Below, in pieces: positions 4,138-14,233 of a stretch of 32,000 nucleotides of DNA. Made by a program: the position numbers and the translations under genes. Numbering within the stretch: position 1 is the stretch's first letter; every line of letters starts with the position of its first letter. The DNA comes from an uncultured archaeon (GTDB lineage: Archaea > Asgardarchaeota > Jordiarchaeia > Jordiarchaeales > Jordiarchaeaceae): NCBI GenBank assembly GCA_964510585.1, contig CAZECW010000099.1, positions 1 to 32,000 on the forward strand. The letters run 5' to 3'. The notes beneath the pieces are model-generated. The model did not search any database, was not told the DNA's origin, and saw only the letters and a list, made by a program, of their open reading frames with translations.

Positions 4138-4418
4138 AAAATTGCTTTCTGTTCCTCTAAAATTCTGTTTTTGAGGGGCGCAAGGAATTACAGGCTAATA
4201 TGTCAACTTTCCTCCCTAAAGACTAAGTCTATCTTCAATCCTGCAAGGTCGAGCAAACTTTTTCTCCCTCAAATTCAACCAAAATATCAATATCACTGTC
4301 TTCCCTCTCTTCCCCTTAGCAAAAGAATCAAAAATAGACGCGCTTTTCACACCATAGCGTCTCAGTATAGGAATTATTTTCTCTTTTATTTTTTTTCCAA
4401 CTCTTGAACTCTTTTCAT
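4134..4418 (-). pseudogene. Frameshifted minimal nucleotidyltransferase (MNT) antitoxin
   Basis: Fragments in shifting frames: MKRVQELEK / IKEKIIPILRRYGVKSASIFDSFAKG / EEREDSDIDILVEFEGEK / SLLDLAGLKIDL / LGRKVDIL / NRILEEQKAIL*. The GS motif is altered to DS. Confidence 0.85.
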
Positions 4419-4523
4419 ATCCACCACATAATTTATACCTACATCTTAATACTACAAAGAAGGTTTGTTTGATAAATCTAACGAGGAGCACTCTTCTATA
4501 AGTGGTTTGAAAAAATTCAAAAA

Positions 4524-4745
4524 AGACGTCTGTGTCCTACCAAAACCCTGATAGGATAAAGAAAAGAGTTCACACATAATGGTTCTAAGTAAAATCTTGT
4601 AGATGTGAACCCCACTAACATCGAATAAAAAAATGATAAAGGACTAACATATAATAACATCGCTTATTTAATACAGGTGGCCACTAATTTCCATCATGAG
4701 AAATGTAATAAGTACAAGAGGATATGATTCAGTTTTAGTTTTCGC
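4524..4745 (-). pseudogene. Decayed tandem copy of the 5' part of the 4855-5472 membrane gene
   Basis: Colinear shared blocks on the - strand (GGAGG RBS, GAAAACYAAAACTG, GTACTTATT, CCTGTATTAAATA, GGTTCAC, TTATCCT); GTG start mutated to GCG; internal stops. Confidence 0.8.
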
Positions 4746-4854
4746 TCTACGAAACCTCCAACTAAACTAATAGGGGGGAACGCTATTCTCCCATTTACAA
4801 ATAACAAATTCATTTTGGTGGCAATCCATTGGGAATCCTACCTATCCAAACCTA

Positions 4855-5472
4855 CTAATCTTGTTCATATAATTGCCTAAGCTTTTTTAGGTAAAAGTAT
4901 GGGGGTAGTAGGATTAAACTAACGGCTATGATTGTGAGAATGGAAGTGTTTGTGCTAGTTAGAGGGATTATTTGAAATATTCCACTGTACACAATTAGTA
5001 AGATCGAACCTGCAATTATTTGGAAGATGATTGTGGAACTTATTGTTAGTCTCTTTTTCCAAGAACTTTTTGTGAGTAAGGAGTGAATTTTTGCCCAAGT
5101 ATCATGGAAATATTCATGTTTGGACATCCCTAAAAAGGGACGGATTAGTCCAGCAAGTATAGGAAGAACTATAGTAGCTAGGATGGTAGCTGTTGCACCG
5201 GTGTAAAATAGGCTAAAGTATTGTTGAGAATCTACTGGAACAATAATGAGAGGCCTGTATCCTAATAAAGCCCAAACAGGATAAGGAAGTGAGTCTAGGT
5301 ATAATTGTTCTACGTAGAATCCTATAGGCGTGAACCTTACTAGCACTGAATGCAGAAATACCAAAGGACCAGTATATGATAACAGCGCATATTTAATACA
5401 GGAGGTGAGAATAACTCCCGTCAAGAGAAGAAAAATAAGTACGATGAAGTAATATACAGTTTTGGTTTTCAC
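4855..5472 (-). CDS. Hypothetical membrane protein (about 4 TM), candidate immunity protein
   Basis: 205-aa ORF, GTG start after GGAGG, about four hydrophobic segments. The function is inferred from context only. Confidence 0.7.
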   Translation of the reverse strand: MKTKTVYYFIVLIFLLLTGVILTSCIKYALLSYTGPLVFLHSVLVRFTPIGFYVEQLYLDSLPYPVWALLGYRPLIIVPVDSQQYFSLFYTGATATILATIVLPILAGLIRPFLGMSKHEYFHDTWAKIHSLLTKSSWKKRLTISSTIIFQIIAGSILLIVYSGIFQIIPLTSTNTSILTIIAVSLILLPPYFYLKKLRQLYEQD

Positions 5473-5572
5473 TTTACAAACCCTCCTTTTAAATTAATAA
5501 AAAAGGATGGAAGAATGGTCTTCTTCCATTTTGAAAGTACGTTCAGGTTGGCGGTGTTCCACCAGGAATTCC

Positions 5573-6891
5573 TCATATACATATCCAAGTATCCCAACAT
5601 CCGCATTCATTGGCAATTGTACTGTACAGGTACTGCAGGTCATACGCTTTTATGGGGTCAATGGGTAGTGGTGAATCATACCAGGGAGGTGTTGCACCAA
5701 TCACGCCACCAGTTGCAGTTACATAGTACCAAGCTATAGTTGGTATAACATCGGGAACCGGCGGATAATACCAAATTGCACCTGTTGGTGGGCTTACTGG
5801 ATAATGAACATACTCATAAAACCGAAATCCCCACACTGGATCTACCGATCTATTTTGCTGTTGGGCAAGAAGAATTTTGTTAAAAAGATCCATAGCTACT
5901 TTACCTGGTTCGAAGGTGGCTGCAGCTAGATAATAGCTGTAATTCCGAGGATGGCCCCAAAGATTTTATGGAACGGTTCGGGGATAAAATCGGCGAGAAG
6001 GACGATAGCTATGCTAGCTGAACCGCTTATGAATCCAGCAAGTCCCGTATAGGTAGGATCTCCAGGAACTTTTATAGCCCATGCGAACCAGATGTTTTCT
6101 TCTAGGTATGTGAAGTGGGTGTATGCGAATACGTCATATCCATAAAATATGGGGACGAGTACGAACCACCACCATTGCCAGACCCATATCCAGCAGATGA
6201 GTGGGGTTCTGCTGATTCTTATGTAGGGGTCGCTGATTACTGTTCCGTCGCTGCTGTATAATGTTATTTTTAACACGTTTTGCGTGGTTCCGTTTATTTC
6301 TAGTGAGTATTCTCTGTATATTGATGTTACTTCTGTTCCGTTGACTGTTTTTGTGGTGCTCCATTCTCTCACTATTTCGCCCTGTTCTACGATGAGGTTT
6401 ATGTTTTGGAATTCCTCCTCTATCTTTGGCTGTCTTTGTTGTTCTTGGAGCATGTTTTTCTGTGATAGTAGTTTGTCATAATCTGCGAAGATTTTTGATT
6501 GCTTCGGGTTCTCTCTCAGAAAGGAGAAGAACAGTTGGGCTACTGTTTCGTTGCTGGGATTACTCATCATTGTTGTGTATATAGTTGAATTCTTCATCAG
6601 CCACAGGTTGAAGTCCAGACTCAGGCTTTTCATAGCCTCCTCCATTTTTATATCAATTATCGACATGGGTGATGTTTCTTTGGAATATTCTTCTAGGGTA
6701 TTTATTTCATTTAATTGTTTTTGGTTTGCGACTAGTATTAGAGGACTGATGTTGTCTGAGATTTGGACCTTGGAGAGCGAACCTATGATGCCTACGCCTA
6801 AGCTGAGAAAAATGACCACAAAACAAATGCAGAAGACTGCTTTGAGAGTTCTTCCCTGCACCCTTGATTCCTCCTTCTCTGAAAAACGCAT
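5573..6891 (-). pseudogene. Frameshifted exported Trp-rich protein (about 439 aa if repaired), made of ORFs 5926-6891 and 5573-5893
   Basis: Restoring one C in ATT ATC [C]TA GCT at 5929 gives ...GITAII-LAAATFEPGKVA-MDLFNKILL..., joining both ORFs. It has an N-terminal signal/TM segment and several N-x-S/T sequons. Confidence 0.7.
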
Positions 6892-7070
6892 AATTTACTC
6901 ATTTTTACGCAAAACTTGTATATATATCGGAAATCCAAGTGAAAGCTTAGCGTAAAGTGAGAGGTTTTGCGGGCAACATTTTGTGCATTTACCCCAATAG
7001 GTTTTAGATTTTCTGAATTTGTTTTTTTATTTGTTATTGTTGGATTTGGGGATTTGTGGGAGGGTGTGTT

Positions 7071-7385
7071 TTAGGTTTTGGTGTCCCAGTTTAGGTCTTC
7101 GTCTTTGTCTCTGTCTTTGAATGTGGCGGTGAGCTGTTTTCCGAGGTCTTGGAAGTAGTCTGTTATGTCGAATGTGAAGCATTTTTGGTGTCTGCAGTAT
7201 TGGCATTCGGTTTCCAAAACGTCGTAGCTTCTGTTTTCGCTGTGGATTAGGTGCTGGATGCGTAGCTTGTAGGCGTTTATTTTGCCGCAGTTTTGGCAGG
7301 GTTGCCGGGATATGAAGATGTACTCGTCACGTACACACTTTACTTCGACGGCGTTATCCTTATCTAACTTGTCCATCTGTTTCAT
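7071..7385 (-). CDS. Small putative zinc-binding protein (CQNC...CQYC)
   Basis: 104-aa ORF with two CxxC pairs, a YDVL segment between them and a C-terminal FTFDIT motif. Confidence 0.7.
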   Translation of the reverse strand: MKQMDKLDKDNAVEVKCVRDEYIFISRQPCQNCGKINAYKLRIQHLIHSENRSYDVLETECQYCRHQKCFTFDITDYFQDLGKQLTATFKDRDKDEDLNWDTKT

Positions 7386-7479
7386 CTCGCAGAATTATTT
7401 ACTCGGGTTAGCTTATCAAAAAGGGGAGCACTCACTATAAATAAATGTTCCTCATCTTTTTGGGGTTTGAAAATTTTGG

Positions 7480-7648
7480 AGGCATAATCAATGTTGATTT
7501 TTCGGCATTTTCGTATCTCTTCCCTTTCCCGACTGCTACTGCTTCGTTCAACTTCTATGGGCAACACTGTGTTATACGGTCTGGGAGCTCAAAGGAGGCC
7601 AGTTTTGGCTAGGTGAATTAAAGGGGGCCTTGGGTTAGCCACCGCCAA
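7480..7648 (-). pseudogene. Degenerate DUF3368-type PIN toxin
   Basis: Overlaps the antitoxin end: LAVANPRPPLIHLAKTGLL* (cf. NAGPLIHLAK), then PIEV and EAVAVGKGKRYENAEK in shifted frames. The 3' limit is approximate. Confidence 0.7.
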
Positions 7649-7937
7649 ACTCTTTGATTTCGCGCTTTATCTCTTCTAGGGTTACTGGGAAGGTAATGTT
7701 ATGCTGCTTTAGGCTGTCAAGAATCTCTCTCTAGGTTGCATCAGCCATTTCGGCGGCGTGCCACACTGTGATTTTTCTCTCTCTTAGGAGTTGTAGGGCC
7801 TCCTTCAGCTTGAACTCTCTCATACCTTGCTTCAACATTTCTCTGATAACTACTGATCTGTTGACACCCCTCTTTTTCGAAATTCTTTCAAGATCCTCTA
7901 GCATCTCTCTTTCTACTCTCGAAGAAATAGTTTCCAT
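7635..7937 (-). pseudogene. UPF0175-family antitoxin with an internal amber stop
   Basis: RHH-like N-terminus; ...HAAEMADAT*REILDSLKQHNITFPVTLEEIKREIKEFGGG* continues in frame past TAG 7731-7733 to TAA at 7635, giving a family-typical 100 aa. Confidence 0.8.
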
Positions 7938-8370
7938 GTGTATAAATTTTATTAGAATTGTAAATGTTAGCTTTCTGGCACAAACTAAACTTTCAAAATC
8001 GGATTCATGTGGTTTATTGCCAAGGCTTGGAGGGAGGGTGGTAGCCGAAATTTTTTGTGGTGTTGGTAGGTCAATTTTTTGTTGATTTGTGGGTCTTTTT
8101 GTGATACGATGGGGGGTTGTTTGACTTGTTTTGGGGGTGTTTTTGGCTGGTTGTTTGTGTCTTTTTCCAGCCTAAAAACGCTTTTTTGTTTTTGTTTTTG
8201 CCTGTGGGAGCCTTTTTATTGGCTTTTTGGAGGAGGACACAACCCAGAAAAGCTATTAGCCTCTAAATTAATTAAATCCCAAAAAAAGTCGAATAAAGCG
8301 AAGCCCTTTTATGTGCATCTTTCCTATTTAAAAATAATTATCGTATGATTGGTTATGGAGGTTTTGTGTT

Positions 8371-8583
8371 GTGACTTGTTATTTTAGGCACATGCAAAAT
8401 ATTTTCGGGAGGGCTGGAATAACTGTTACGGATGGAAACAAGAGGGAGCTTGATCGGGTTATTCATCGCATTGTGGGTGTGGGGTATAAGAATTGTTCGG
8501 CTGCTTGGAGGGAGGTTAAGAGGAGAATAGCTGAGGATGAGGATGGGTTTGTTTCAGAGCTTAAGAAGGCTTGGGGTCAATAG
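8371..8583 (+). CDS. Small hypothetical protein, probably conserved in archaea
   Basis: 70-aa ORF after a GGAGG RBS; MTCYFRH...KNCSAAWREVK resembles a recalled small archaeal family. Confidence 0.7.
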   Translation: MTCYFRHMQNIFGRAGITVTDGNKRELDRVIHRIVGVGYKNCSAAWREVKRRIAEDEDGFVSELKKAWGQ

Positions 8584-8862
8584 AGTTTTTCTTTGAATTT
8601 TTCTTTTTCGTTTCTGGGAACCAGCCTCTTTTCCCGCCTTTTTTTGGGGGGAAGGGTGTAAATAGTTCCGCCTCATAGCTGTTTAAGAAAAAAGAGGAAA
8701 CCTGTGGTGCTTTCTGCCTTGTTTGTGAATTCTGCCAAATGGAATATGGTTGATGTGGGGTGTGGTGGGGGGTTGGCTGTTTAAAATTTTCAGTTTTGTT
8801 GCTTGTGGGGTTGGTATACCTTGTTTTTTGCTGGTAGGGGGATTTAGATTTACAGGAAGCTA

Positions 8863-8958
8863 GATACATACAGATATATGTTTTATTATGTTGATACATA
8901 TATATAGTTAATTTTATATGTTAGTTTGTACAATTTATGAGTACAATTATTAATGGAG
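8863..8958 (+). promoter_or_regulatory. Promoter/RBS region of the methyltransferase operon
   Basis: AT-rich TATA-like tract, GATACATA x2 (8863, 8893), GTACAATT x2 (8928, 8941) and a GGAGGA RBS before ATG 8969. Confidence 0.45.
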
Positions 8959-8968
8959 GAGAAACGGA

Positions 8969-10465
8969 ATGCCCAAACCCGGTGTTCCTTTACCGTCACG
9001 TGGATTATGGAAATTGCTGGATAAAGAAGAATTGGATATAATTGATGCCGCAGGTTACAAAATTCTGAAAGATGTGGGCGTCTTCATAGATGACGAAGGA
9101 TTACTGAAGATGGCGGAGGAAATGGGATGCAAAGTAGACTATGGAAAGAAGGTGGTCACAGAGATTCCCGAACACATAATTAAAGAGAATGTGCGCAAGG
9201 CTCCCAGAAGCTTCCTATTGGCGGGTAGAGTTCCGGAATGGGATGTCGTCATTGAGGGCCCTGCAAGAAAGCAGTTCTGGTCAGTAGAAAGCGGAGCCAC
9301 AGATTTCCTTGAGTGGGATAAAGAGAAGAAGAGATATTATCGGAGGAGAGCAAGTGCAAAAGATGTTTTGTATGGAGCCAAAATCGTTGACGGTATAGAT
9401 GACTTCGATTTCAACATTTATATTTGGGATGCTGCTGAAGAGGGACAAAAAGGACTACCCTCAGAACTCAACAAGATGAACGCCATGCTTCAGGGCACTG
9501 TGAAGTGGGCCGGCCACCTCTGCACAACAGTTTCTAAAATTGAGGAATATGATTATGTGGAGAGGCTGGGTGAACAGGTAGCTGGAGGCGCAGAGGAGCT
9601 AAGGAAGAGGCCGCTCTTCTGGACCGTGTACAACTATATTGGTACACTGCAGTTGAACAGGTTTAATAGCTGGTTGTTTAGGGCATCAGTTAAACACCAC
9701 TGGCCAATAATGCCCGCCGTGACTGCTGCCGCACCTCTACAAGGCCCAGCTATGGCCGCCGGAAACACGGCAATTAGCCACGCAGGGGTACTCTTTATGC
9801 TAGCGCTCAAACAGTTCCACGACCCAGGCATAGCGGCTGCGGTGAACAACATAGTTTTCTGTTTGGATCCTTGGACGGGAAGAGGAGGTGCTTATTCTCC
9901 GCATTTTCTGTTCGGCTCGGGTGCTATGAATCAGTTGTGGCATGAACTCTACGGGCTTCCGACCACACAGTATGGTGGCACATTTGCTGCAAGTCTTGAC
10001 CAGCAAATCTTTAATCTTTCGAGATGGATGGCTTTGCAAATGGCGATGGGGACAGACATGATCTTTATACAGTGTGGAACAGAGGCCTTTGATCCTGCAT
10101 TGATACCTATAACTGCTGAGATAGCAAGGGCGGGTAGATGCACCATGGCTGAATTTGATCAGATTATGCCTACGCCTGAGAACCTTGCCCTTGACGTGAT
10201 TAAAGAGGTTGGGGTCAAGGGAGAGAAATGGATGACACACAAGTATAACCTTGATCGTATGAAGAGGTTCCCCAAAGCTTTCTGTCTTGATGATAGAGCC
10301 TTTGATGCCTGGCTGCAAGCTGGTGCGCCCTCGTGGGCTTATGATATTTGCAGGGAGAAACTGAAAGAGTTAGAGAAGCATGAACCAGAGCCACTGCCTA
10401 AGGATGTGGTTGAGCGGATGAACGCTATTGTGAAAGAGGGAAATGAGAAGCTGAAGGTGAGATAA
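8969..10465 (+). CDS. mttB: Non-pyrrolysine trimethylamine methyltransferase (MttB)-superfamily methyltransferase (MT1)
   Basis: 498 aa with no in-frame TAG. N-terminal ILKDVGV...KAPRSFLLAGR and C-terminal DDRAFDAW...HEPEPLPKDV patterns fit the MttB family; adjacent to a corrinoid protein gene. Confidence 0.85.
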   Translation: MPKPGVPLPSRGLWKLLDKEELDIIDAAGYKILKDVGVFIDDEGLLKMAEEMGCKVDYGKKVVTEIPEHIIKENVRKAPRSFLLAGRVPEWDVVIEGPARKQFWSVESGATDFLEWDKEKKRYYRRRASAKDVLYGAKIVDGIDDFDFNIYIWDAAEEGQKGLPSELNKMNAMLQGTVKWAGHLCTTVSKIEEYDYVERLGEQVAGGAEELRKRPLFWTVYNYIGTLQLNRFNSWLFRASVKHHWPIMPAVTAAAPLQGPAMAAGNTAISHAGVLFMLALKQFHDPGIAAAVNNIVFCLDPWTGRGGAYSPHFLFGSGAMNQLWHELYGLPTTQYGGTFAASLDQQIFNLSRWMALQMAMGTDMIFIQCGTEAFDPALIPITAEIARAGRCTMAEFDQIMPTPENLALDVIKEVGVKGEKWMTHKYNLDRMKRFPKAFCLDDRAFDAWLQAGAPSWAYDICREKLKELEKHEPEPLPKDVVERMNAIVKEGNEKLKVR

Positions 10466-10468
10466 GAG

Positions 10469-11131
10469 GTGTCTGAGAAGGAAAAGATCTTGAAAAAGTT
10501 GGCAGAGGCGGTCGTGAATTTTGATGAGGCCGCAGCTATGGCTGCTGTGGATGAAGCGATTAAGGCGAATATTAATCCTGTCGATGCTCTCACTAAGGGA
10601 CTTACTGTGGGTATTAAGGAAGTCGGTGATAAGTTCGGGAGAGGCGAAATTCCCTTACCCTTCTTAATGTTGTCCGCTCAGGTTATGGAAAAGGCTTCTG
10701 AAAAGCTCCAGCAACACATTCCGAAGGAAGAGGTTCCCGAACCCTTAGGTGTAATGGTGATTGGAACCGTTGAAGGTGACATACATAACTTAGGCACAAA
10801 CATTGTTACCGCAGTATTCAGCGCGTCAGGAATTAAAATGTACAATATTGGCGTTGACCAGCCGGTTGACAACTTTATCAAGAAAGCTCTAGAAGTGGAT
10901 GCGGATATTATTGGGGCGTCAGCACTTATGAGCAACACACTTCAGCAGCAAAAGTTTCTCGGCGAGGCCCTTAAGAAAAGGGGGCTCAGAGACCGGTTCA
11001 TATATATGGTGGGCGGTGGAGCCTTTCCCGGTGAAGAATGGTTAAAGGAAGTAGGCGCCGACGACTATGCTACTGACGTAATTATTGGGCTGGAAAAGGC
11101 CAAAAAACTCCTAGAAAAAATAAAAGAATAA
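10469..11131 (+). CDS. Methyltransferase cognate corrinoid protein
   Basis: N-terminal cap domain, B12-binding GDIHNLG (DxHxxG), SALM and VGGG motifs. Confidence 0.93.
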   Translation: MSEKEKILKKLAEAVVNFDEAAAMAAVDEAIKANINPVDALTKGLTVGIKEVGDKFGRGEIPLPFLMLSAQVMEKASEKLQQHIPKEEVPEPLGVMVIGTVEGDIHNLGTNIVTAVFSASGIKMYNIGVDQPVDNFIKKALEVDADIIGASALMSNTLQQQKFLGEALKKRGLRDRFIYMVGGGAFPGEEWLKEVGADDYATDVIIGLEKAKKLLEKIKE

Positions 11132-11240
11132 CAACGGAGTAGAAGACACCACACATCCACTCCTTTTCTTTTTTTATTTTAAATTCAAAAAGTTTTAGTG
11201 GAACTAATTAAGGGAAGAGCTTTATGGGTGAGAGTTTGGC

Positions 11241-13175
11241 ATGGCTTTAGAAGCGGAGGTTACTTTTCAGCCTGAGGGTAAACGTGTGAGGGTTAAACTT
11301 GGCGAAACGGTATTAGAGGCGGCTAAACGTGTGGGCGCTGATCTAACCTCAATTTGTGGGGGCGAGCGCACTTGTGGAAAATGTAGAGTCATAGTTGGGA
11401 GGGGGGAAAACACGGGCTCCATAATGGATGTGGAGAGAAAATTTTTATCCTCAGAAGAGATAACTGCAGGTTATAGATTGGCTTGCTGCACACAGGTTAG
11501 GGGTAACCTCACAGTTAGAATACCGGAGGAGAGTAGGACTGGCCGCCAGAGGCTTCAAGTTGAGGGGATAGAAACTCCGGTGAAGCTAGAACCACTCATC
11601 AACAAATACTTTCTTAGACTGTCGAAACCATCCCTCCAAGATCCCAAGGCTGACTTTGAAAAACTGTTAGAAGAATTACAGTCTCAATACGGTCTTAAGG
11701 ATTTGGAAATAAGTTTCGATATTCTCCAAAAGCTGCCAATCATTTTAAGGGAAGGTGAATGGAAGGTAACGGTCACCACTTGGCGGAATGAGGTAATAAT
11801 CGGTGTGGAGCCTGGGGATAAGACACACAGAATCTTTGGGTACGCTGTGGACATTGGAACCACGAAACTCGCAGGGTATCTCCTTGACCTAACTACGGGG
11901 AGGGTGGTTGCTGTGGACTCTTTGATGAATCCGCAGATACCATACGGCGAAGACGTCATAACAAGAATTACTTATGCAACGAAGGGAGTCGAGGAGCAAA
12001 AGGAACTCCAACGAGTAATTGTCAATGGTGTAAACCAGCTCCTTAAAGGACTCCTGGAAAAGACAGATGTTAAGCCAGAAGAAGTTTACGAGATGGTTGT
12101 GGTGGGCAATACTGCTATGCATCACCTCTTCCTGAACATTTGCCCCAAATTTTTAGCTTTATCACCGTACCCTCCTGCCATTAAAAGGGGATTGGATGTT
12201 AACGCAGAAAAAATTGGGGTGCGGATTAATCCGAATGGTAATGTTCATGTTCTTCCTGTGATAGCGGGGTTTGTGGGAGCCGACGCTGTTGCTGTAATTT
12301 TGGCAACAGAGATGTACAAAAGAGACGAACTTTGTATGGCGTTAGATATTGGGACAAATACAGAGGTTTTTTTGGGAAATAAAGAGGGGATATTTGCGTG
12401 TTCCTGTGCTTCTGGCCCTGCTCTTGAGGGGGCTCGCATAAAGTATGGGATGAGGGCGGCAAGTGGCGCAATTGAGAGGGTGAAAATAGATCCCAATACT
12501 CTCGCAGTTAATTATTGGACTATAGATAATGATAGGCCTCATGGGATTTGTGGCTCCGCTATGGTAGATATTTTAGCGGAGATGTTGAAGGCCGGAATAA
12601 TAGATGTTTCAGGGGTTATGAATAGAAACTTGGCCTCAGATAGGTTGCGTTCTGGAAAGGCGGGGCTTGAGTTCGTATTGGCTTGGAAGGAGGAAGCTGC
12701 TACAAAGGAGGACATAGTTTTCACCCAGAACGACGTTAAGGAAATTATTTTGGCAAAATCAGCTATACACACGGGAACCATGACGCTTATGAGAAAGAAG
12801 GGCATAGTTGAGGCGGATATAGATATACTCTTCATAGCTGGGGCCTTCGGCTCCTATATAGACCCGGAAAACGCGAGAATAATAGGTATGTATCCTGAGG
12901 TACCACTGGAGAAGGTGAAGATAGTAGGTAATGCTGCGGGGACTGGGGCAAGGATGGCCCTAGTTTCCAGTACAGCCAGAAACACTACTGAAGAAATATC
13001 GAGAAAGGTGAATTATGTAGAGCTTGCTGCGGAACCCAATTTTCAATCAGAGTTCCTTAACTCGTACTTCTTACCTTACGCAGACCTGTCGAAGTATCCA
13101 CAGACCAGCGAGCTACTAAAAAAATTGGGAAGGTACCCCAAAAGGCCCCCAGTCTATTTTCCAAGTAAAACCTAA
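11241..13175 (+). CDS. Reductive activator of corrinoid proteins (RACo/RamA-like; 2Fe-2S + ASKHA ATPase)
   Basis: CGGERTCGKC...LACC ferredoxin domain, VDIGTTK, LDIGTNTE, GICGS, AGAFGSYI and GNAAGTGA. Confidence 0.93.
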   Translation: MALEAEVTFQPEGKRVRVKLGETVLEAAKRVGADLTSICGGERTCGKCRVIVGRGENTGSIMDVERKFLSSEEITAGYRLACCTQVRGNLTVRIPEESRTGRQRLQVEGIETPVKLEPLINKYFLRLSKPSLQDPKADFEKLLEELQSQYGLKDLEISFDILQKLPIILREGEWKVTVTTWRNEVIIGVEPGDKTHRIFGYAVDIGTTKLAGYLLDLTTGRVVAVDSLMNPQIPYGEDVITRITYATKGVEEQKELQRVIVNGVNQLLKGLLEKTDVKPEEVYEMVVVGNTAMHHLFLNICPKFLALSPYPPAIKRGLDVNAEKIGVRINPNGNVHVLPVIAGFVGADAVAVILATEMYKRDELCMALDIGTNTEVFLGNKEGIFACSCASGPALEGARIKYGMRAASGAIERVKIDPNTLAVNYWTIDNDRPHGICGSAMVDILAEMLKAGIIDVSGVMNRNLASDRLRSGKAGLEFVLAWKEEAATKEDIVFTQNDVKEIILAKSAIHTGTMTLMRKKGIVEADIDILFIAGAFGSYIDPENARIIGMYPEVPLEKVKIVGNAAGTGARMALVSSTARNTTEEISRKVNYVELAAEPNFQSEFLNSYFLPYADLSKYPQTSELLKKLGRYPKRPPVYFPSKT

Positions 13176-13309
13176 GTATATATTTTACTTTAAGTAGTGT
13201 CGCTCAATTAGTTGTTTGAAGCGGGATGAGAGATAATTAAAAATTGTTTGAAGGATGAAAATTGACATATTGTATTTTGATGATAGTTAAATTATTAGTT
13301 ATGTGTTAG

Positions 13310-14233
13310 GTGATGAGTTTGTTCAAATTTGAGAGAGAACAAAAAATTTTTGATGTGGCCGGCGTCAAAATTGGAGGACAGCCGGGGCAGCTCCCCACTG
13401 TAATGATTGGAACCATTTTCTATCATAAAGATAAAATTGTGAAAGACGAAAAGACTGGAGAATTTGACAAGGAAAGCGCAGAAAAACTTCTAAAGGCTGA
13501 GGAGGAAATATCTTCCAAAACTGGGAACCCCAGAATAGTTGACGTTTGCTCTTCATGGCCTCAGGCCTTTGAGAAATTCATTGACTTCGTGGCAGACAGG
13601 ATTGATGGACCGTTTTGCATTGATGGAACAACTGCTGATGTTAGGATGGCTGGAGCTAAATATGTTGGGGAAACCGGCTTGGCAGAACGCGTTATTTATA
13701 ATTCGATAGCTCCAGAAATTAAGGAGGCTGAGATTTCAGCAATTAAAGAGGCGAAAATAAAAACTGCAATATTACTGCTGCTTAACACAGAAAAGCCACT
13801 TATCGCTGGGAGATTAGAGGTAATTGACAAATTACTGGAGAAGGCAAGAATGACAGGCGTAGAGAAAATACTCATAGACACAGCGGTATTTGACATACAG
13901 GACCCCGGACCCACGGGCAAAACCATTTATTTAGTTAAGGAAAGGTATGGTTACCCAGCAGGATGCGGAGCCCATAACGCCATAGATATATGGAACAAAC
14001 GCAGAAAGCTAAGCCCAGAAACATATTTTGCCAGCAGTCTAGTCGCCAACATTCTACCCGTAGTCATGGGAGCCAACTTCATGCTATACGGCCCCATTAA
14101 AAACGCATCCAAAATATACGTTCCCGTTGCAGTTACAGACGCATACGTAGCCTACACCATGTGGCAGGAACACAATTATATGCCCTCAACAAAGAACCAC
14201 CCCTTCTTCAATTTAAGTAGAATAGCCACTTAA
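13310..14233 (+). CDS. mtrH: Stand-alone MtrH-like methyl-corrinoid:pterin methyltransferase (MT2)
   Basis: FKFEREQKIFDVAGVKIGGQPGQLPTVMIGTIFY, GCGAHNA and LYGPI; no mtrA-G genes nearby. Confidence 0.9.
   Translation: MMSLFKFEREQKIFDVAGVKIGGQPGQLPTVMIGTIFYHKDKIVKDEKTGEFDKESAEKLLKAEEEISSKTGNPRIVDVCSSWPQAFEKFIDFVADRIDGPFCIDGTTADVRMAGAKYVGETGLAERVIYNSIAPEIKEAEISAIKEAKIKTAILLLLNTEKPLIAGRLEVIDKLLEKARMTGVEKILIDTAVFDIQDPGPTGKTIYLVKERYGYPAGCGAHNAIDIWNKRRKLSPETYFASSLVANILPVVMGANFMLYGPIKNASKIYVPVAVTDAYVAYTMWQEHNYMPSTKNHPFFNLSRIAT

Follow-up and report, generated by a model that had tools for sequence, protein, structure and literature searches.

A candidate polymorphic membrane effector and its four-helix partner in one order of Asgard archaea

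Polymorphic toxin systems pair an exported multidomain protein, which has a constant N-terminal part and a variable C-terminal toxin, with a downstream immunity gene and with orphan modules (Zhang et al. 2012, as cited in PMC6393860). We analyzed a stretch of 32,000 nucleotides, called the window throughout, from an uncultured archaeon of the Jordiarchaeaceae (Asgardarchaeota; GenBank assembly GCA_964510585.1, contig CAZECW010000099.1, positions 1 to 32,000 of the forward strand). Positions 4,524 to 6,891 of the window hold a cassette consisting of a large gene for an exported protein and, behind it, a small gene for a membrane protein, referred to here as the partner. By analogy, the set of genomic features described below is the behaviour of polymorphic effector-immunity systems. 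The large protein has a hypervariable hydrophobic hairpin, the partner is variable, 3' parts are swapped, spare modules and many copies are present, and the large gene decays while the partner is retained. Taken together, these observations make a polymorphic membrane effector with a cognate partner, either toxin/immunity-like or serving self-recognition, the best explanation, although we give it slightly less than an even chance of being correct.

Several described systems have features that bear on this locus. The CdiI immunity proteins of the ionophore toxins of contact-dependent growth inhibition (CDI) are multi-pass membrane proteins. In the pore-forming colicins (A, E1 and Ia types), an immunity protein with three to four transmembrane helices recognises a hydrophobic hairpin inside the membrane, and VENN and PxxxxDPxGL are demarcation motifs of toxin modules of the orphan kind. 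The CdiI proteins of the ionophore toxins of E. coli were found to be highly polymorphic and cognate-specific, members of one group sharing only ~30% identity (Halvorsen et al. 2024, PMC11630599). The hydrophobic hairpin of colicin Ia has been described (PMC2585860), and the IdsD/IdsE pair of Proteus mirabilis has its specificity determined by regions that cross the membrane (Cardarelli et al. 2015, PMC4471559). Orphan modules of the cdiA-CT/cdiI and rhs-CT/rhsI types are also on record (Poole et al. 2011, PMC3150448).

A hypervariable hairpin in a conserved exported protein

The large protein has a hydrophobic segment at residues 8-27 behind a basic N-terminus, with sequons beyond it (5-6 N-x-S/T sequons in the protein). 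These are followed by a Trp-rich stretch (7 Trp and 16 aromatic residues in 48), two Gly/Ala-rich hydrophobic helices around an IPEP turn and a tail rich in Pro, Tyr and Trp, in which 20 of 104 residues are aromatic and 16 are Pro. The original prediction had drawn the frame-repaired protein of ~439 aa with just this anchor, sequon region, Trp stretch, hairpin and tail, and all of these elements were found on the minus strand. An AlphaFold model built from 32 sequences was usable (pLDDT 72, pTM 0.67), whereas one built from 6 close sequences was not (pLDDT 41). The usable model is divided as follows:

N-terminus: hydrophobic helix
Residues 65-160: helical bundle
Residues 162-250: beta-sheet, the last two long strands of which are the Trp-rich segment (pLDDT 85-90)
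Residues 252-340: long hydrophobic helical hairpin (pLDDT 52-63)
Residues 346-428: mixed C-terminal domain

The Trp-rich stretch is modelled as a beta-hairpin that belongs to the ectodomain and not as a membrane span. Three sequons of the sheet are kept across paralogs. Asp211 and Pro212, just ahead of the Trp-rich hairpin, are the sole invariant columns of the large family. Two members (915 and 1854 aa) run on past the family C-terminus into long sequon-rich Ig-like repeat arrays and, on this sequence evidence, the C-terminus of the large protein must lie outside the cell. With the C-terminus placed there, the hairpin must enter and leave the membrane from the outside face, with the conserved IPEP turn inside. 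The giant member (L030, G117:C1:112000-126000, positions 5589-11153, minus strand) has a ~430-aa module that leads into over 15 Ig-like repeats rich in sequons, for a total of 1854 aa, and a further 463-aa repeat ORF lies downstream of it (4217-5608).

We compared seven orthologs of the large protein and found that residues 256-335, which hold the two hydrophobic helices and the conserved IPEP turn, were only 25-64% identical, while identity in the flanks was 80-97% for the N part and 80-98% for the C part. The dN/dS values were 0.5-0.85 for the hairpin, 0.11-0.33 for the N part and 0.07-0.35 for the C part, and dS was alike across the three regions for most pairs. For example, the alleles L001 and L034 had dN values of 0.03, 0.28 and 0.05 at dS values of 0.30, 0.33 and 0.26 for the N part, hairpin and C part, respectively. 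Variable C-termini had been predicted, but the C-terminal 100 aa were as conserved among orthologs as the N part, and it was the hairpin that was hypervariable instead. One allele, L033, differed in that its dS rose to 1.2-2.3 from about residue 255 to the end, as against 0.17-0.45 upstream, and its first partner was of type B rather than A or C. This jump in dS indicates that the 3' part of L033 was imported from a distant allele.

The divergence of the partner tracked that of the hairpin. Over 17 cassettes the correlation was 0.90, and the partial correlation given the N domain was 0.72 (0 of 2000 permutations), while the divergence of the partner against the N domain, given the hairpin, was 0.13. 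We read this co-variation as suggestive only, because kinship and shared fast rates inflate such correlations. In the small protein a central YE-x-F loop is best conserved, as judged by eye from alignment A7. Complex prediction with the large protein (alignment A6) and its cognate small protein (A7) gave a score of 0.01 against a mark of 0.32, in a run that had no controls.

Truncated modules with partners of their own were also found. On contig G120:C149 the order is full gene, partner, 5'-truncated module, partner, second truncated module, partner, and the first truncated module starts exactly at the Pro of the invariant Asp-Pro. By eye, this first truncated copy and the full copy are only ~35-40% identical in both the hairpin and the partner and ~70-80% identical in the flanks. 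A truncated module plus partner was also seen in G117, which is a closed genome, and in the genome of the window, where contigs C64 and C68 have this layout and the relic in the window preserves scraps of it. Truncated modules at G118:C343, where the module stands behind the first partner gene, and at C121 59872-60150 had no detected partner behind them. The truncation points were at profile positions 218, 263, 288, 311 and 331.

These features can be set against the described systems one by one. As in polymorphic toxin systems, there is an export signal, and truncated downstream modules carry partners of their own; the identity drop here is limited to residues 256-335, and L033 alone has recombined from ~255 to the end. 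The orphan cdiA-CT and rhs-CT modules likewise show a full gene with its partner followed by 5'-truncated 3' copies with their own partners, and the copy that starts at Asp-Pro recalls the VENN and PxxxxDPxGL demarcations. The truncation points here are non-uniform (218-331), however, and Asp-Pro can be called only a putative boundary or cleavage motif. The CDI ionophore toxins are similar in that the membrane-inserting helical element varies between alleles, the adjacent partner is as polymorphic (~30% between types), and constant and variable parts are combined in one exported protein, with self/nonself discrimination as the outcome there. They differ in having a C-terminal five-helix bundle, where the protein described here has a mid-protein two-helix hairpin followed by a conserved outside domain. 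We found no sequence or detectable fold relation to CDI proteins, and no CdiB/two-partner secretion or filamentous stalk accompanies the cassette.

The colicins share with the present cassette an Ala/Gly-rich hydrophobic helical hairpin and a small polytopic partner, and binding between the two would follow here by analogy. Colicins are soluble, whereas the large protein has an N-terminal export signal and the look of a membrane resident, and its partner is co-directional. IdsD and IdsE are an adjacently encoded membrane pair whose strain-specific variable regions overlap predicted transmembrane helices and decide allele-restricted binding, which serves recognition, not necessarily killing. 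In the cassette, the variability of the large protein likewise lies in its hydrophobic hairpin helices. The Ids sequences are unrelated to ours, IdsD is secreted by a type VI system and has no glycosylated ectodomain, and no multi-copy arrays of truncated modules have been described for that pair.

Range of the two families and linkage of the genes

Many members of both families were compared with Pfam, PHROGs and PADLOC without a consistent match, profile searches against PDB sequences found nothing, and neither family was found described in a literature search. For the large family, PDB, BFVD and the ESM Atlas were searched by fold, with generic helical-hairpin matches only (best BFVD E 0.02), and an ESM Atlas feature search gave scores of <=0.81 and no lead. 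The Pfam colicin domain was found in 0 of 32 large-family members at E <= 1, and the model is a hairpin beside a beta-sheet rather than a ten-helix bundle; the small partners did not match colicin immunity families. A caspase-like identity, raised by a weak Atlas row (TM 0.23), was rejected, as no His/Cys pair is conserved in the family. Among 1.84 billion representative proteins, a profile search identified only 34 members of the large family. It was present in 6 of 6 genomes of the genus of the window and in 2 of 4 genomes of a second genus that belongs to the order of the window, and nowhere else among 400 genomes of the phylum; the small family was equally narrow in range. The sequence searches thus support the view that both are undescribed protein families of one Asgard order (genomes labelled Jordarchaeia or Freyarchaeia), in agreement with the original prediction, which had recognised no family for either protein.

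Copy number of the large family ranged from 3 to ~12 loci per genome. The closed genome of the genus had 3, and others had 7-10 matches. The genome of the window had ~12 loci, three of which were intact (on contigs C205, C20 and C34), while the locus on C112 was cut by the contig end. Those in the window, on C121 and on C182 were broken, and four C-terminal fragments and two N-terminal stubs were present in addition.

A co-directional polytopic membrane gene was found right behind the large gene in 24 of the 26 loci with downstream DNA, so that the predicted constant adjacency of the membrane gene in other genomes was borne out. Twenty of the linked partners belong to the small family, including the one at the locus of the 915-aa Ig-extended member, and the only full-length loci without a partner were one in G119 and that of the 1854-aa giant. 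At the orthologous locus the small genes belong to types A, B and C (~30-55% identity between types) and occur in 1-4 copies and in shuffled order behind the large gene:

Window: C, pseudo-C
L003: C, B', B, plus the beginning of a fourth where the contig ends
L032: C, B, A
L001: A, B, C
L033: B, A
L005: C
L034: A

Extra or orphan partner copies do accumulate, as had been proposed, given that their number and order vary and that decayed copies were seen. Two other kinds of membrane protein were observed at these loci. A 258-aa four-helix membrane protein (MTRWSHV...) stands in place of the small family at L031 (6411-7187, minus strand), L024 (918-1694, plus strand) and L041 (1876-2649, plus strand). 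Directly behind the large gene, this type was seen in the second genus as well as at a single locus of the first genus, and the small-family profile does not recognise it. A 381-aa protein with 8-10 predicted helices (C112 1143-2288, plus strand; L040 3982-5127, plus strand, at the locus L040a) sits between the large and small genes in two loci, and in C112 a small-family fragment comes next. It has an apparent internal duplication, in which LRTKKWG occurs twice, and may be a third partner class.

The window copy and its surroundings

In the window the large gene is spread over two reading frames and carries two lesions:

5926-6891, minus strand: first frame of the large gene, a 321-aa ORF closed by TAG that codes for the signal/anchor through both hairpin helices
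5926-5928, minus strand: frameshift site, a 1-nt deletion (5927/5928) in which one T is gone from ATC-TTA, giving TAG
5573-5925, minus strand: second frame of the large gene, the C-terminal Pro/Tyr/Trp-rich domain (profile positions 314-442, E 6e-79)
5573-5575, minus strand: premature TGA in place of a Gly codon, 10 codons ahead of the natural stop at 5543-5545

The first frame takes in the helical and beta parts of the ectodomain with their sequons and the Trp-rich beta-hairpin. The GTG at 6861, behind a GGAGG, is likely the true start judging from the sequence context, and homologs begin M/V-QGRT. The homologous reading resumes one base back, in 5573-5925, and the full repaired protein has ~439 aa. 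Alignment to homologs at the 3' end of the gene placed WICI* of the window against WIWIGGIPGGTPPK; all relatives read WIWIGGIPGGTPP where the window has WICI-stop, and a Trp codon near the TGA reads Cys in the window. A search of 5.8 billion proteins identified six relatives of 363-475 aa with 73-93% identity, labelled as Freyarchaeota, Jordarchaeum or 'Lokiarchaeia' metagenome-assembled genomes, of which the four complete ones have 436-475 aa. The relatives are contiguous across the frameshift junction (...ITAII/LAAATFEPGKV...).

To learn whether these lesions were real, we relied on closely related contigs. Two of them, X2 and X3, come from two other hot-spring samples and from other studies and are identical to the window at both lesions, which are thus present in three metagenome assemblies. 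A third strain, X4 (~96% identical), has an extra A behind 5927, 5575 A>C (TGA to GGA) and 5579 A>C (TGT to TGG), and these changes give back the frame, the Gly and the Trp. Because X2 and X3 carry both lesions and X4 neither, the large gene is truly broken in the window strain and intact in a close relative. The identical X2 and X3 contigs and the lesion-free X4 ruled out assembly error as the source of the lesions. Stop-codon recoding was rejected since the frame changes at the TAG, the TGA stands for Gly and no PylS was found in the genome, and programmed frameshifting was rejected since the frame is unbroken in a close strain and every homolog reads contiguously. By its sequence the broken gene would yet give the signal, ectodomain and hairpin, along with a C-terminal domain stripped of its export signal. 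The window copy is a pseudogene, and since this copy is dead there is no active system here in this strain.

The small gene, by comparison with the large gene, has survived, and it is followed by what is left of another cassette:

5507-5529, minus strand: stem-loop resembling a terminator, with a T-run, in the space between the large gene and the small gene (pattern match only)
4855-5472, minus strand: small partner gene of type C, intact, 205 aa, 4 predicted transmembrane helices
4810-4851, minus strand: remains of a second large gene, its final 14 codons plus the stop, VWIGRIPNGLPPK*, right behind the small-gene stop
4517-4775, minus strand: decayed second small gene of type C, its ribosome-binding region and ~80 N-terminal codons
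6892-6937, minus strand: 5' edge of the cassette, an upstream region with a TATA-like GATATATATAC

The original prediction of a co-directional small polytopic gene behind the large gene was accurate. On the 3' side of the stem-loop at 5507-5529 an A/T-rich box and then a GGAGG precede the small gene, and together with the stem-loop and T-run these hint that the small gene may be transcribed independently of the large gene. A decayed paralog of the partner had also been noted, and it is present: 4524-4772 shares 70-73% nucleotide identity with 5249-5499, ribosome-binding region included, and the decayed gene matches relatives in tblastn (E 2e-11) and blastn (E 1e-49). It has lost its start (GTG to GCG, 4743-4745) and has stops and a 2-nt deletion. 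That claim can be extended, since in blastn 4848-4530 aligned to the large-gene 3' end, the spacer and the small-gene 5' end of L032, L001 and L034. From this alignment, the decayed partner copy is the remains of a whole second cassette, including the tail of its large gene.

Homology among cassettes begins sharply at ~6935-6937, ~45 nt upstream of the annotated ATG and just outside the TATA-like element, and stops just past the small gene, so that the unit is ~2.1 kb; no terminal repeats were found around it. Cassettes with such sharp edges occur in at least 3 genomic contexts, and several stand beside toxin-antitoxin (TA) modules (UPF0175/DUF3368, HepT/MNT, MazE, PIN). The flanks of cassettes are metabolic or housekeeping genes, and no viral or plasmid genes adjoin any copy. 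The window locus has an alcohol dehydrogenase/DeoC pair on one side and a non-Pyl MttB-corrinoid-RACo-MtrH cluster on the other, a layout common to four other contigs. TA relics had been predicted on both flanks, and the one on the upstream side was confirmed:

7550-7937, minus strand: TA relic, an RHH/UPF0175 antitoxin with a TAG at the Tyr codon 7731-7733

The first 37 codons of a DUF3368 toxin are left in this relic. A relative with 85% identity has Tyr at the site of the antitoxin TAG, which we read as a stop because the genome is without PylS.

Other features of the window were as follows. A gene at 7071-7385 (minus strand) encodes a 104-aa four-Cys zinc-ribbon protein with no family match beyond a weak one to zf-C4pol (E 0.01). 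It is 92% identical to the gene at the same place in L003 and L007, and because it is absent next to cassettes in other contexts we place it outside the cassette. The methyltransferase cluster at 8969-14233 (plus strand) has no in-frame TAG. Its MttB-superfamily protein was identified by a scan of the window itself, and its corrinoid (B12-binding), RACo activase and MtrH-like genes were assigned by position and size from the syntenic L003 and L007. Positions 1001-2000 have a GC skew of -0.43 and an AT skew of +0.27, which is strong compared to the neighbouring kilobases. No tRNA or Rfam element was found within the window, and no RNA dataset with the locus was listed among public runs.

Proposed function, alternatives and significance

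In its intact form the cassette is a self-contained, lineage-specific two-gene membrane unit. The N-terminal signal/anchor would export the ~439-aa large protein, so placing a glycosylated helical and beta-sheet domain, closed by the Trp-rich beta-hairpin, outside the cell. The Gly/Ala-rich two-helix hairpin would then dip into the membrane, and the 100-aa aromatic/proline-rich domain would be back outside. Within the membrane the hairpin may be the active or the recognised element, which the four-helix small protein would bind allele-specifically, either neutralising it (immunity) or reading it (self-recognition). Cells would retain partners and spare 5'-truncated modules, exchange 3' parts by recombination and shed large genes easily. 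In this strain the 1-nt deletion would leave the C-terminal domain in the cytoplasm, and a late nonsense codon and one intact partner complete the picture. The anatomy, the lesions, the linkage, the variability of the hairpin, the recombination, the truncated modules and the range are observed, whereas pairing within the membrane, any toxic or recognition activity, any cleavage at the invariant Asp-Pro and the route to another cell are inferred. A fuller version, which is conceivable yet on balance doubtful, is that two new folds make up a system, specific to Asgard archaea, by which cells antagonise one another or recognise kin. In it, cleavage at Asp-Pro would let the hairpin enter the membrane of a neighbour as an ionophore or identity tag, the repertoire of four-helix partners would set protection, and the promoter-less 3' modules would be a recombination reservoir.

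Several observations weigh against an effector and cognate partner. No toxin, pore-former or immunity family was recognised in Pfam, PDB sequences, PHROGs, PADLOC or the fold searches, and we see no route of release or delivery. The protein carries a signal/anchor of its own as well as a strongly hydrophobic hairpin and should, going by its sequence, stay in the membrane of the producer. Among orthologs its C-terminal domain evolves under purifying selection, which sets it apart from the tips of classical polymorphic toxins. The members extended by Ig repeats resemble stable surface proteins, and the 1854-aa one has no partner. A dN/dS that is raised yet below 1 could also come from relaxed constraint on a hairpin that faces lipid, and both kinship and shared fast rates confound the Mantel result. 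Finally, the varied truncation points and the N-terminal stubs mean that decay of tandem duplicates could explain some of the apparent orphans. Of the antagonism first proposed for this locus, the cassette logic, the linkage, the orphan copies and the novelty of the families have stood, while the variable C-terminus has not.

The main alternative is a variable surface glycoprotein, structural or adhesive, with a dedicated anchor or assembly partner, and we consider it unlikely, though deserving of more weight than the other alternatives. The small protein would in that case insert or hold the hairpin. That truncated 'silent' modules feed gene conversion of the pilE/pilS kind, for instance in escape from a virus that uses the protein as receptor, is an equally improbable elaboration. 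The predicted outside location of both ectodomains, the three sequons kept across paralogs and the purifying selection on the N and C domains would suit such a protein. So would the Ig-like repeat arrays, typical of surface proteins, in two members, and the retention of the partner gene even with an Ig-extended member. The 5'-truncated copies, without promoter and signal, look like silent cassettes. However, the peak of variation among orthologs is in the membrane-embedded hairpin and not in the exposed domains. Half of the copies in the window genome are broken or fragmentary, at 3 to ~12 loci per genome, which is odd for a needed envelope component. The cassette moreover changes genomic context and adjoins TA modules, and partner genes, at 1-4 copies per locus, have been duplicated and reshuffled. 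Adhesin or viral homologs had been named as the finding that would speak against antagonism. We found no significant viral match, but the two adhesin-like Ig-repeat members do count against an effector with a cognate partner.

Less probable than a surface glycoprotein is a cell-autonomous conflict module (abortive infection, exclusion or addiction), in which a membrane-disrupting effector or a sensor of the cell's own membrane is restrained by the small protein until virus attack or loss of the cassette. The two genes are closely linked, and a terminator-like hairpin between them would permit separate dosage; this is in line with such a module, as are the TA modules repeatedly nearby, the quick turnover, the lineage restriction and the survival of the partner beyond decay of the large gene. 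Yet no PADLOC defence model matched, a large glycosylated ectodomain and Ig-extended members would be unusual for an internal abortive-infection effector, and a partner that outlives its effector fits protection from outside attack better than addiction. A remnant of a virus or mobile element, in which the large protein would be an envelope or spike glycoprotein and the small one a viral membrane protein, is very improbable: the protein is N-glycosylated and membrane-anchored with an aromatic-rich membrane-proximal segment and the cassette lies at differing chromosomal sites, but no copy has viral or plasmid neighbours, no PHROG match and no significant match among viral predicted structures was found (best BFVD E 0.02), and the cassette is only ~2.1 kb with ends that have no repeats.

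Asgard archaea are the closest prokaryotic relatives of eukaryotes. To our knowledge almost nothing has been learned of competition or mutual recognition among them, and we know of few archaeocins. The candidate effector and its partner offer two undescribed families, a clear specificity element in the transmembrane hairpin, a natural series of alleles with matched partners, and natural knock-outs, of which the copy in the window is one. If the large protein is instead a variable envelope protein, it would be among the first candidates for surface variation in Asgard archaea. If the pairing of hairpin and partner is allele-specific, polymorphic effector-immunity logic would reach into the Asgard archaea without a known delivery machine, and the pair would be a new module of recognition between membrane proteins.

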